From assembly GCF_050920415.1 (NCBI RefSeq), contig NZ_CP169309.1: a stretch of DNA of 64,000 nt. One strand, written 5' to 3'. Origin of the DNA: Escherichia coli (GTDB taxonomy: Bacteria; Pseudomonadota; Gammaproteobacteria; Enterobacterales; Enterobacteriaceae). The notes under the pieces were generated by a model. It did no database searches and was not told the DNA's origin. It worked only from the letters and a program-made list of their open reading frames with translations. Below are positions 10,239 to 48,134 of the stretch, in pieces. How positions within the stretch are numbered: position 1 is the stretch's first letter; every line of letters starts with the position of its first letter. The position numbers and the translations under genes were made by a program.

Positions 10239-10569
10239 TTTGTTCTTCCCGTAATGCAGACATAATTCTATGAAAGCATAAATTAAAAACGCACAGAAGC
10301 GTAGAACGTTATGTCTGGTTTATAAAATGAACCTTCAATTTTATTTTTATGAAAACAGCATTTCATTTTTACGGTTTCGTTTATACCGATGGTTTATGTG
10401 GAAATTGTCGAAGAGAGCAGATTTGCGCAACGCTGGGATCAGTCTTAAAAAGTAAAAAAATATATTTGCTTGAACGATTCACCGTTTTTTTCATCCGGTT
10501 AAATATGCAAAGATAAATGCGCAGAAATGTGTTTCTCAAACCGTTCATTTATCACAAAAGGATTGTTCG

Positions 10570-40573: not shown

Positions 40574-41986
40574 TTACAGGACGTGAACAGATGCGGTGTT
40601 AGTAGTGCCGCTCGGTACCAGTGCACCAGAAACCATAACTACGACGTCACCTTTGTGTGCCAGACCGCTCTGCAGAGCCAGTTCTTTACCCAGACGGTAG
40701 AAATCATCAGTAGAAGTGATTTCTTTAACCAACTGCGGCACAACGCCTTTGCTCAGTACCAACTGATGAGCCGTTTTTTCGTTGGTGGTCAGTGCCAGGA
40801 TGGTGGCATCCGGGAAGTATTTACGTACTGCACGAGCAGATTTACCGCCCTGGGTAGCAACCACGATCAGCGGAGCATCCAGTTTTTCAGCAGTTTCAAC
40901 CGCGCCACGGCATACTGCTTCGGTAATGCGCAGTTTACGGTTGTCATTGTTGAACTCGAGACGGCTGTTCATAACGCGGTCGGTACGTTCGCAGATGGTC
41001 GCCATGATAGAAACTGCTTCCAACGGGTATTTACCTTTTGCGGATTCACCAGACAGCATTACTGCGTCAGTACCGTCGAGGATGGCGTTCGCAACGTCAC
41101 CGGCTTCTGCGCGAGTCGGGCGTGGGTTTTTGATCATTGAATCGAGCATCTGGGTCGCAGTGATAACGACTTTACGTGCACGGATACATTTTTCGATCAT
41201 CATCTTCTGGGCGAAGATAACTTCTTCTACCGGGATTTCTACACCCAGGTCGCCACGCGCAACCATGATGCCGTCAGAGGCTTCGAGGATTTCGTCGAAG
41301 TTGTTGAGGCCTTCCTGGTTTTCGATTTTGGAGATGATTTGGATGTTTTCACCACCGTGTGCTTTCAGATGTTCACGGATTTCGATAACGTCAGAACGCT
41401 TACGAATAAAGGAAGCAGCAACAAAGTCTACGCCTTGTTCGCAACCGAAGATCAGGTCTTGTTTGTCTTTTTCAGCCAGTGCTGGCAGGGCAATAGAAAC
41501 ACCCGGCAGGTTCACACCTTTGTTTTCGCCCAGGTCGCCGTTGTTCAGCACTTTACAGATAACTTTGTTACCTTCAATGGCGGTAACTTCCATACCGATC
41601 AGACCATCGTCAACCAGTACGGTGTTGCCAACAGACAGGTCAGTAGTGAAACCTTCATACGTTACCGCAACCATTTCGCTGTTGCCGATAACAGATTTAT
41701 CAGTGGTGAAAGTAAAGGTCTGACCCGCTTTCAGAGAAACGTCGTTACCGCCTTCCAGTTTCATGGTGCGGATTTCCGGACCTTTGGTATCAAGCAGGAT
41801 AGCGGCGGTTTTACCGGTTTTGCTCATCACGTTGCGCAGATTCTGAATGCGCTGACCGTGTTCTGCATAGTCACCATGAGAGAAGTTCAGACGCATAACG
41901 TTCATGCCAGCGTCCAGCATTTTAGCTAACATCTCTTCAGATTCGGTTTTCGGTCCGATGGTGCAAACAATTTTGGTCTTTTTCAT
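40574..41986 (-). CDS. pykF: Pyruvate kinase I (FBP-activated)
   Basis: 470 aa from ATG 41986 ([40 protein letters not shown]); the 72-codon ORF-track extension is rejected. Confidence 0.97.
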
Positions 41987-42191
41987 GACAGTCTTAGTCT
42001 TTAAGTTGAGAAGGATGGGAGAAACTTGCTTTCTGGGCGCACTGCCGGAAAGCGAATTCGGTATTACGAAAGTGGTGGTGCCTCGCTCTAAGGATAGGTG
42101 ACATCGAAAAAGCGTGCAGAGGAATGTGTGCTTGTGTCTCAGCCCAACGTGAGTGCCTGTTTTTGAGTCGTTGAGTTCTACAGTCCAAAGT

Positions 42192-42207
42192 GCTGAAACC
42201 ATTCAAG
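42192..42207 (+). promoter_or_regulatory. Cra (FruR)-like operator upstream of pykF
   Basis: gctgaaaccattcaag resembles the Cra consensus (TGAAWC...TTCA); about 210 bp upstream of the pykF ATG. Confidence 0.4.
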
Positions 42208-42542
42208 AGTCAATTGGCGCGCATTATACGCTGAAATTAATCCAAAAGGAAAACAAAAACAGCGTTTCAAAAAATATACAACTCGTTAGACAATAAATTG
42301 TTATCAAAGATTTAACGTTCCAGGGAAAACGTTACGCAAAAACTTCGCTGTTTGCGCAACGTCTGGAGTCAGATTTGTCAGTGTGAGGACGAGTGAAAAT
42401 TCATTAGGTGTACAAATACATCATCGCTAAATTGCTTCAGTTAAAATAATTTATCGCGTTATTTGTATGATTTTCTTTGGTTTTTGTTTAATTGGTTAGA
42501 TTGATATATGCTGATAGTTGGCATGATAAATAGGTATAAAGA

Positions 42543-47352: not shown

Positions 47353-48134
47353 ACCCGTCGCAACATGCTGAACAGTTTCAGAGCCAGTTGGCGAACTATG
47401 TGCCACAGTTCACTCCCCAATTTTGGCCGGTGTGGTTGATCATTGCTGGACTATTGCTGGTAGGGATGTGGTTTGTGCTGGGGCTGCATGCCTTGCTTCG
47501 TGCTCGTGGCGTGAAGAAATCAGCCACCGACCATGGTGAGAAGGTTTATCTTTACAGCAAAGCGGTCAGATTATGGCACTGGTCGAATGCGTTACTCTTT
47601 GTATTGTTGCTGGCAAGTGGGCTGATAAATCACTTTGCGCTGGTGGGCGCAACTGCGGTTAAAAGTCTGGTTGCGGTGCATGAAGTTTGCGGATTTTTGT
47701 TACTGGCATGCTGGCTCGGCTTTGTTCTGATCAATGCCGTTGGGGGTAATGGTCACCACTATCGCATTCGTCGTCAGGGGTGGCTGGAGCGAGCGGCAAA
47801 ACAAACGCGATTCTATTTGTTTGGCATTATGCAGGGGGAAGAACATCCTTTCCCGGCAACAACCCAGTCTAAATTTAATCCCTTACAGCAGGTTGCCTAT
47901 ATTGGTGTCATGTATGGATTGCTGCCGTTGTTACTATTGACGGGGCTGCTGTGTCTCTATCCGCAAGCCGTGGGAGATGTGTTTCCTGGCGTAAGATACT
48001 GGTTATTGCAGGCGCATTTTGCTCTGGCATTTATAAGCCTCTTTTTTATCTTCGGTCATCTTTATCTTTGCACCACGGGGCGTACGCCACACGAAACCTT
48101 TAAAAGCATGGTCGATGGCTATCACCGGCACTAA
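47349..48134 (+). CDS. ydhU: Cytochrome b-type membrane anchor (PhsC-like)
   Basis: 261 aa with multiple hydrophobic helices and conserved His residues. Confidence 0.88.
   Translation: MNPSQHAEQFQSQLANYVPQFTPQFWPVWLIIAGLLLVGMWFVLGLHALLRARGVKKSATDHGEKVYLYSKAVRLWHWSNALLFVLLLASGLINHFALVGATAVKSLVAVHEVCGFLLLACWLGFVLINAVGGNGHHYRIRRQGWLERAAKQTRFYLFGIMQGEEHPFPATTQSKFNPLQQVAYIGVMYGLLPLLLLTGLLCLYPQAVGDVFPGVRYWLLQAHFALAFISLFFIFGHLYLCTTGRTPHETFKSMVDGYHRH

Follow-up and report, generated by a model that had tools for sequence, protein, structure and literature searches.

The 16 bp at positions 42192-42207 of the window, by which we mean the whole 64,000-nucleotide stretch of Escherichia coli DNA analysed here, are almost certainly the known Cra (FruR) operator of the distal pykF promoter. 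The element, for which these coordinates are exact, reads gctgaaaccattcaag on the plus strand and CTTGAATGGTTTCAGC in the orientation of pykF; as a feature it is assigned to neither strand. The pykF coding sequence (pyruvate kinase I, 470 aa) occupies 40574-41986 on the minus strand and is identified by the NCBIfam PykF equivalog NF006664 (992 bits, E 2e-299). The A of its ATG is at 41986, and the operator lies 206-221 nt upstream of it, in keeping with the distance of about 210 bp given in a preliminary description of this DNA. On the plus strand the two operator halves are GCTGAAAC and CATTCAAG, of which GCTGAAAC, the promoter-distal (downstream) half, is perfect with respect to the consensus.

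The preliminary description had seen a Cra/FruR half-site pattern in these bases, and this was borne out by the sequence comparisons. The operator is an exact fit to the classical, Ramseier-type Cra pattern RSTGAAWCSNTHHW, a 14-mer, and 14 of its 16 bases are identical with the proximal operator of fruB. Like other Cra sites described by RSTGAAWCSNTHHW or gcTGAAtCGaTTCAgc, it is an imperfect palindrome of 14-16 bp with one strong half-site. The window holds three matches to RSTGAAWCSNTHHW against 0.48 expected, a number that none of the shuffled sequences reached; they include the pykF operator and the Cra site of ppsA, and one intragenic match is found at 41645. When the 16-mer palindrome GCTGAAWCGWTTCAGC, the consensus of both Kim 2018 and O-cra, was searched with up to three mismatches, five matches were found where 1.1 were expected. 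The pykF operator differs from this palindrome at three positions (13/16 identical), and the ppsA site likewise has three mismatches.

A position weight matrix (PWM) scan for Cra, proposed in the preliminary description, gave a concordant result. The matrix was trained on four operators other than that of pykF, namely fruB proximal, fruB distal, O-cra and ppsA. The pykF operator scored 15.5 bits and came second among about 128,000 positions in the window. First was the Cra site of ppsA, but as this site lies in the window and also belongs to the training set, its rank is circular, and information can be drawn from the rank of the pykF site alone. Shuffled sequence yields 0.25 hits per 64 kb at or above 15.5 bits, and about 0.002 chance hits would be expected at this score in the 556-bp intergenic region. 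The third-best match (13.9 bits) is GCTGAACAGTTTCAGA at 47367-47382, which fits TGAAWCNNTTCA and lies in the ydh cluster downstream of ydhV. It is probably an intragenic chance match.

The Cra assignment would have been weakened by a Cra site elsewhere in the pykF promoter. Neither the consensus nor the PWM scans found a better Cra-like site than 42192-42207 in the pykF-fumD intergenic region. Three candidates for a second Cra site were rejected, each being a half-site only and falling below the top PWM ranks: the upstream TGAAAC at 42264-42269, GCTGAAAT overlapping the promoter spacer at 42230-42237, and GCTGAGAC in the leader at 42136-42143. The last of these, on the minus strand, corresponds to a perfect strong Cra half-site, GCTGAAAC, in Salmonella, Citrobacter and Enterobacter, where it lies some 72-79 nt downstream of the distal transcription start. 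This leader element may be a cryptic half-site, or just the conserved codons W-A-E-T of the leader open reading frame ynhH described below. One published position differs from ours. The Cra site was put "197 nt upstream" of the ATG (Olvera 2009), which is 9-24 nt off the 206-221 nt observed here, and there is no Cra-like sequence at 42183, the position to which 197 nt corresponds.

Short degenerate motifs of this kind arise at 0.25-0.5 per 64 kb, and the intragenic match at 41645 is an example at hand. In an intergenic region rich in A and T, the resemblance of the operator to the Cra consensus might accordingly be accidental and without function. The comparison of 80 pykF loci from about 27 genera, ranging from Escherichia to Proteus, Yersinia, Dickeya, Xenorhabdus and Budvicia, leaves this reading with practically no chance of being right. 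The core TGAAWGGWTTCAGC was present in 78 of the 80 loci, in each as the best Cra-like candidate in the 600 nt that precede pykF, at a distance of 211-279 nt from the ATG (median 227). All 79 core-bearing sequences (the window included) have a -10 hexamer, TATAAT in 73 and TATACT in 6, and in 78 of them the hexamer ends 15-18 nt before the core, most often 17. In a MAFFT alignment of the 27 genera, 42207-42192 is the most conserved 16-mer of the 340 nt upstream of pykF, with a mean column conservation of 0.947 as compared to 0.54 elsewhere. Chance resemblance is thus ruled out by the near-invariance of the operator across the bacterial order, in a leader that has otherwise diverged to about 54% column conservation, and by its fixed spacing to the conserved -10 hexamer. 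The other conserved islands of the alignment are the -10 hexamer itself, a T-rich block, the proximal CTATCCT and the ribosome-binding region.

The variation that does occur in the orthologous operators is also of the kind associated with Cra sites. In the thirteen variants found, changes occur solely at the two W positions and at the outermost two bases of the weak half, where the consensus is degenerate or specifies little. Judged from the alignment, such a pattern would be expected where selection preserves the contacts of Cra. The two loci without a Cra core, from a Plesiomonas metagenome-assembled genome (L062) and from Rosenbergiella epipactidis (L065), each have a sequence resembling a decayed core where one would be expected, some 280 nt before pykF; in L065, for instance, it reads TCTGTTTGGTTTCCGG.

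That pykF is a Cra-repressed glycolytic gene, as the preliminary description stated, accords with its published Cra-dependent regulation. Direct binding of Cra at pykF reportedly goes back to Bledig, Ramseier and Saier in 1996, the source to which Olvera and colleagues attribute it. The gene is recorded as FruR/Cra-regulated together with the Bledig 1996 promoter (Olvera 2009). Repression of pykF by Cra in vivo was seen in a comparison with a cra deletion, in a study that did not find binding of CRP to the pykF promoter. Mutation of the "Cra binding site" deregulates reporters in which pykF is fused to gfp, and such reporters have been used to compute Cra activity. Because there is no other candidate, the "Cra site" of these reporter papers should be the 16 bases described here. 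In a ChIP-exo study of Cra (Kim 2018), pykF is named nowhere in the main text; the same study lists epd, pdhR, gapA and mtlA as promoters where Cra represses from sites over the -10 element or the transcription start, or downstream of them.

These genetic data also bear on whether the site might be the operator of another LacI/GalR-family factor with a similar half-site, which we consider extremely improbable. It is true that operators of this family share a central CG and halves of the AAAC/GTTT type, and that the centre of the pykF operator is an invariant CC where the consensus has CG. However, a TGAAWC half-site with flanking GC is the signature of Cra, the older Cra consensus permits S at the central position, and the 14/16 identity is to fruB O1, an operator of Cra itself. 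The published genetics credit Cra, and EcoCyc, as cited in a reporter paper, lists Cra as the sole regulator of pykF.

The position of the operator was compared with the mapped starts of pykF, as the preliminary description had suggested. The distal promoter, pykFp, is a sigma70 promoter on the minus strand with the -10 hexamer TATAAT at 42223-42228 (Olvera 2009, Kim 2012, Ramachandran 2012). Its sequence has a G+C-rich discriminator, GCGCGCC (42216-42222, minus), between -10 and +1. Transcription starts at the A at 42215, on the same strand, 7 nt past TATAAT and 229 nt upstream of the pykF ATG. In E. coli K-12 this start was mapped at 1753493 with a 229-nt untranslated region, 88 reads and the upstream string …GCGTATAATGCGCGCCA (Kim 2012), and in Salmonella it is the primary start P732 of a dRNA-seq study, with an identical promoter string and a sigma70 -10 (Ramachandran 2012). 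A 96-bp segment containing promoter and operator matches K-12 MG1655 with 100% identity, so that the published start coordinates carry over to the window; 5330 of 5425 genomes have this segment at an identity of 99% or more. The operator is the same element as the FruR/Cra operator of K-12 pykF (RegulonDB/EcoCyc, promoter pykFp), and it is contained verbatim both in the published pykFP string (Olvera 2009) and in the "pykF promoter" of a strain-engineering paper. The Bledig 1996 promoter "pykFP", as quoted by Olvera 2009, is given as …TTTCAGCGTATAATGCGCGC with a distance of 231 nt from the ATG and FruR as regulator. The start predicted there corresponds to 42217, 2 nt upstream of the mapped 42215 (-231 predicted vs. 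-229 mapped). The distal transcript was not detected by 5'RACE on glucose, where starts at -34, -80 and -97 were found instead (Olvera 2009).

By these mapped starts, the operator covers +9 to +24 of the distal promoter in both E. coli K-12 and Salmonella, with its centre at +16.5. The preliminary description had concluded from the distance to the ATG that there must be either a long leader or a distal operator. The first alternative holds and the second does not: with the start 229 nt upstream of the ATG, the leader is long and the operator is promoter-proximal. The site is thus found in the promoter of a central-carbon gene, at a position suited to repression.

A sigma70 two-hexamer scan found no -35 element resembling TTGACA at 16-18 bp spacing in pykFp. 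The best candidate picked by hand is TTTCCT, with 3 of 6 bases and an 18-bp spacer. The -35 region contains a T-rich block, GTTTTTGTTTTCCTTTT (42244-42260, minus), that is conserved in the alignment. An inverted repeat of the form TGAAAC-N3/4-GTTTYCA lies at 42254-42269 on the minus strand, -54 to -39 of the distal start. It is kept in Enterobacteriaceae (Salmonella, Citrobacter, Klebsiella and Enterobacter) and absent from Yersinia, Serratia and Erwinia, and in the E. coli copy the right half is degenerate (TGAAACGCTGTTTTTG). The repeat contains a Cra-like half-site, with spacing that is wrong for a Cra operator, and is placed where a class I/II activator would bind at a promoter lacking a -35 element. 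At the orthologous Salmonella start, 6 reads were counted in the wild type vs. 43 in relA spoT, a difference of about 7-fold (Ramachandran 2012). This suggests that the distal promoter is also under stringent (ppGpp) control, which may be tied to the GCGCGCC discriminator.

The E. coli lineage of the window is not that of K-12. The pykF-fumD intergenic region (41987-42542) has matches in 5425 of 5426 complete E. coli genomes; with strain MFDS1022581 the identity is 100%. Only 3 of the 5426 reach at least 99% identity over this region; most strains are about 98% identical. The divergence is concentrated away from the promoter-operator core, which is itself identical to K-12.

These positions are compatible with a simple steric mechanism. 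RNA polymerase starting at the A at 42215 would need the DNA from +9 to +24 for its open or initially transcribing complex, and Cra bound there would keep the polymerase from initiating or from escaping the promoter, in the manner of LacI at lac O1. With gluconeogenic carbon sources, Cra free of inducer would bind and less ynhH-pykF mRNA would be made. On glycolytic sugars, fructose-1-phosphate (fructose-1,6-bisphosphate being more debated) would free Cra from the operator and lead to derepression, the "catabolite activation" of this gene. A proximal promoter would supply Cra-independent expression of pykF.

This proximal promoter, of the sigma38/sigma70 type, lies at 42084-42097 on the minus strand, with the -10 element CTATCCT at 42097-42091 and the start at the G at 42084. 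This start precedes the ATG by 98 nt and follows the distal start by 131 bp; it is thus downstream of the Cra operator and inside ynhH. It corresponds to a K-12 start with 145 reads located 98 nt upstream of the ATG (Kim 2012), to Salmonella P733, which is at the position equivalent to -98 and was assigned "Sigma 38" (Ramachandran 2012), and to pykFP4-P5 at -97 (Olvera 2009). The CTATCCT block has a C at -13, is conserved over the 27 genera and is of the sigma38 type according to Olvera 2009 and Ramachandran 2012. From its position, the proximal promoter should be outside the control of Cra. A Cra-independent proximal promoter would explain the modest effect of Cra on total pykF mRNA, noted by Olvera 2009.

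The closest known relative of the pykF operator is the proximal operator of fruBKA (fruB O1), regarded as the archetypal high-affinity and strongest natural Cra operator. Written side by side, GCTGAAACGTTTCAAG of fruB and GCTGAAACCATTCAAG of pykF agree in their perfect left half and in the weak half TTCAAG, and both sites repress. The central GT of fruB O1 is CA in pykF, which accounts for the invariant CC instead of CG at the centre. Two operators are present at fruB, against a single recognisable one at pykF.

The Cra site of ppsA, a Cra-activated gene, provides an internal positive control. It is GGTGAATCGTTCAAGC at 10468-10483 on the minus strand, in the ppsR-ppsA intergenic region, and is the top PWM match in the window. 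It shares with the pykF site the protein, the number of mismatches to the palindrome and a weak half of the TTCAAGC type. The two differ in position and effect: with the ppsA start at 10521, as mapped in K-12 at 49 nt upstream of the ppsA ATG, the ppsA site lies at -53 to -38 (centre -45.5) and activates, whereas the pykF site lies at +9 to +24 and represses. This pair conforms to the general behaviour of Cra, an activator when bound upstream and a repressor when its site overlaps the promoter or lies downstream. The placement of the pykF operator also resembles that of lac O1, where LacI, a member of the same family, binds a pseudo-palindrome just downstream of +1 and is freed by a sugar-derived inducer. 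The protein and the inducer are different, and auxiliary operators or looping are not evident at pykF.

The leader between the operator and pykF contains an open reading frame. RefSeq annotates it as "protein YnhH", 64 codons at 41994-42188 on the minus strand with a TTG start and a TAA stop. The TTG is 4 nt downstream of the operator and the TAA is 7 nt before the pykF ATG. YnhH had no match to a protein family, and we found no literature on the expression or function of ynhH. The frame is nonetheless widespread. In the leader, roughly 200 nt long, one frame is free of stops in 69 of the 79 core-bearing sequences, as against about 24% expected, and the other two frames have 2-6 stops each. 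Counted by genus, 23 of 27 are open where dinucleotide shuffles predict 6.6 (binomial 6e-11, with phylogeny not corrected). In all 69 open loci the frame ends -14 to +14 nt from the pykF ATG; in 17 of them stop and start codon overlap as ATGA. The leader thus holds a conserved open frame that begins close to the mRNA 5' end and stops beside or within the start of pykF.

This arrangement raises the question of whether the conserved block of the operator owes its maintenance chiefly to a role at the RNA or translation level in the ynhH-pykF mRNA, be it in initiation of the open reading frame or as a site for an sRNA or RNase, with its likeness to Cra sites being secondary. In 65 of the 69 open loci an in-frame TTG, ATG or GTG is found 2-8 nt after the core, in-frame TTG, GTG or ATG codons occur within the weak half-site as well, and sRNAs against the pykF 5' untranslated region have been reported in Salmonella. 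However, the start codon drifts among lineages (TTG at +2 or +3, ATG at +2, GTG at +6 or +8) while the block is invariant, and the block contains no Shine-Dalgarno-like sequence. Shuffled sequences fold as well as the 60 nt at the 5' end of the mRNA (z = +0.69), and Rfam gave no match at E ≤ 1. Proteus and Budvicia keep both the block and TATAAT, though their open reading frame is lost or broken. The variation, moreover, is restricted to the degenerate or weakly specified positions of the Cra consensus. On these grounds we rejected an RNA-level explanation as highly unlikely. The block does abut the start codon of ynhH, and conservation of the Cra operator could partly serve translation.

What ynhH itself does is a separate matter. 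Its peptides are barely alignable between families, and within Enterobacteriaceae pN/pS is 0.4-0.96 in frame as compared to about 1.0-1.2 out of frame. These sequence comparisons suggest that selection acts on translation through the leader (coupling or protection from Rho) and not on the protein. The distal transcript would then be a ynhH-pykF bicistron in which translation of the leader is required for expression of pykF from the Cra-controlled promoter, a proposal that we put forward only tentatively and that may well be wrong. Such a role could be exerted by termination-reinitiation coupling at the pykF start, which has no obvious Shine-Dalgarno sequence, or by shielding of the leader from Rho.

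The Cra operator of pykF is textbook biology and was already known, so that its identification here matters as confirmation only. Regulation of pykF by Cra is a standard example of flux-dependent control, and the pykF promoter serves as a reporter of glycolytic flux. To this the present analysis adds the geometry of the operator, at +9 to +24 relative to a start mapped in two species, the conservation across the entire order of a distal promoter, together with its operator, that was missed by one 5'RACE study, and a proximal promoter that would escape Cra. The conserved ynhH leader open reading frame is the only element that might lead to something new. If translational coupling through ynhH were true, it would add an undescribed translational layer to the output of this "flux sensor".
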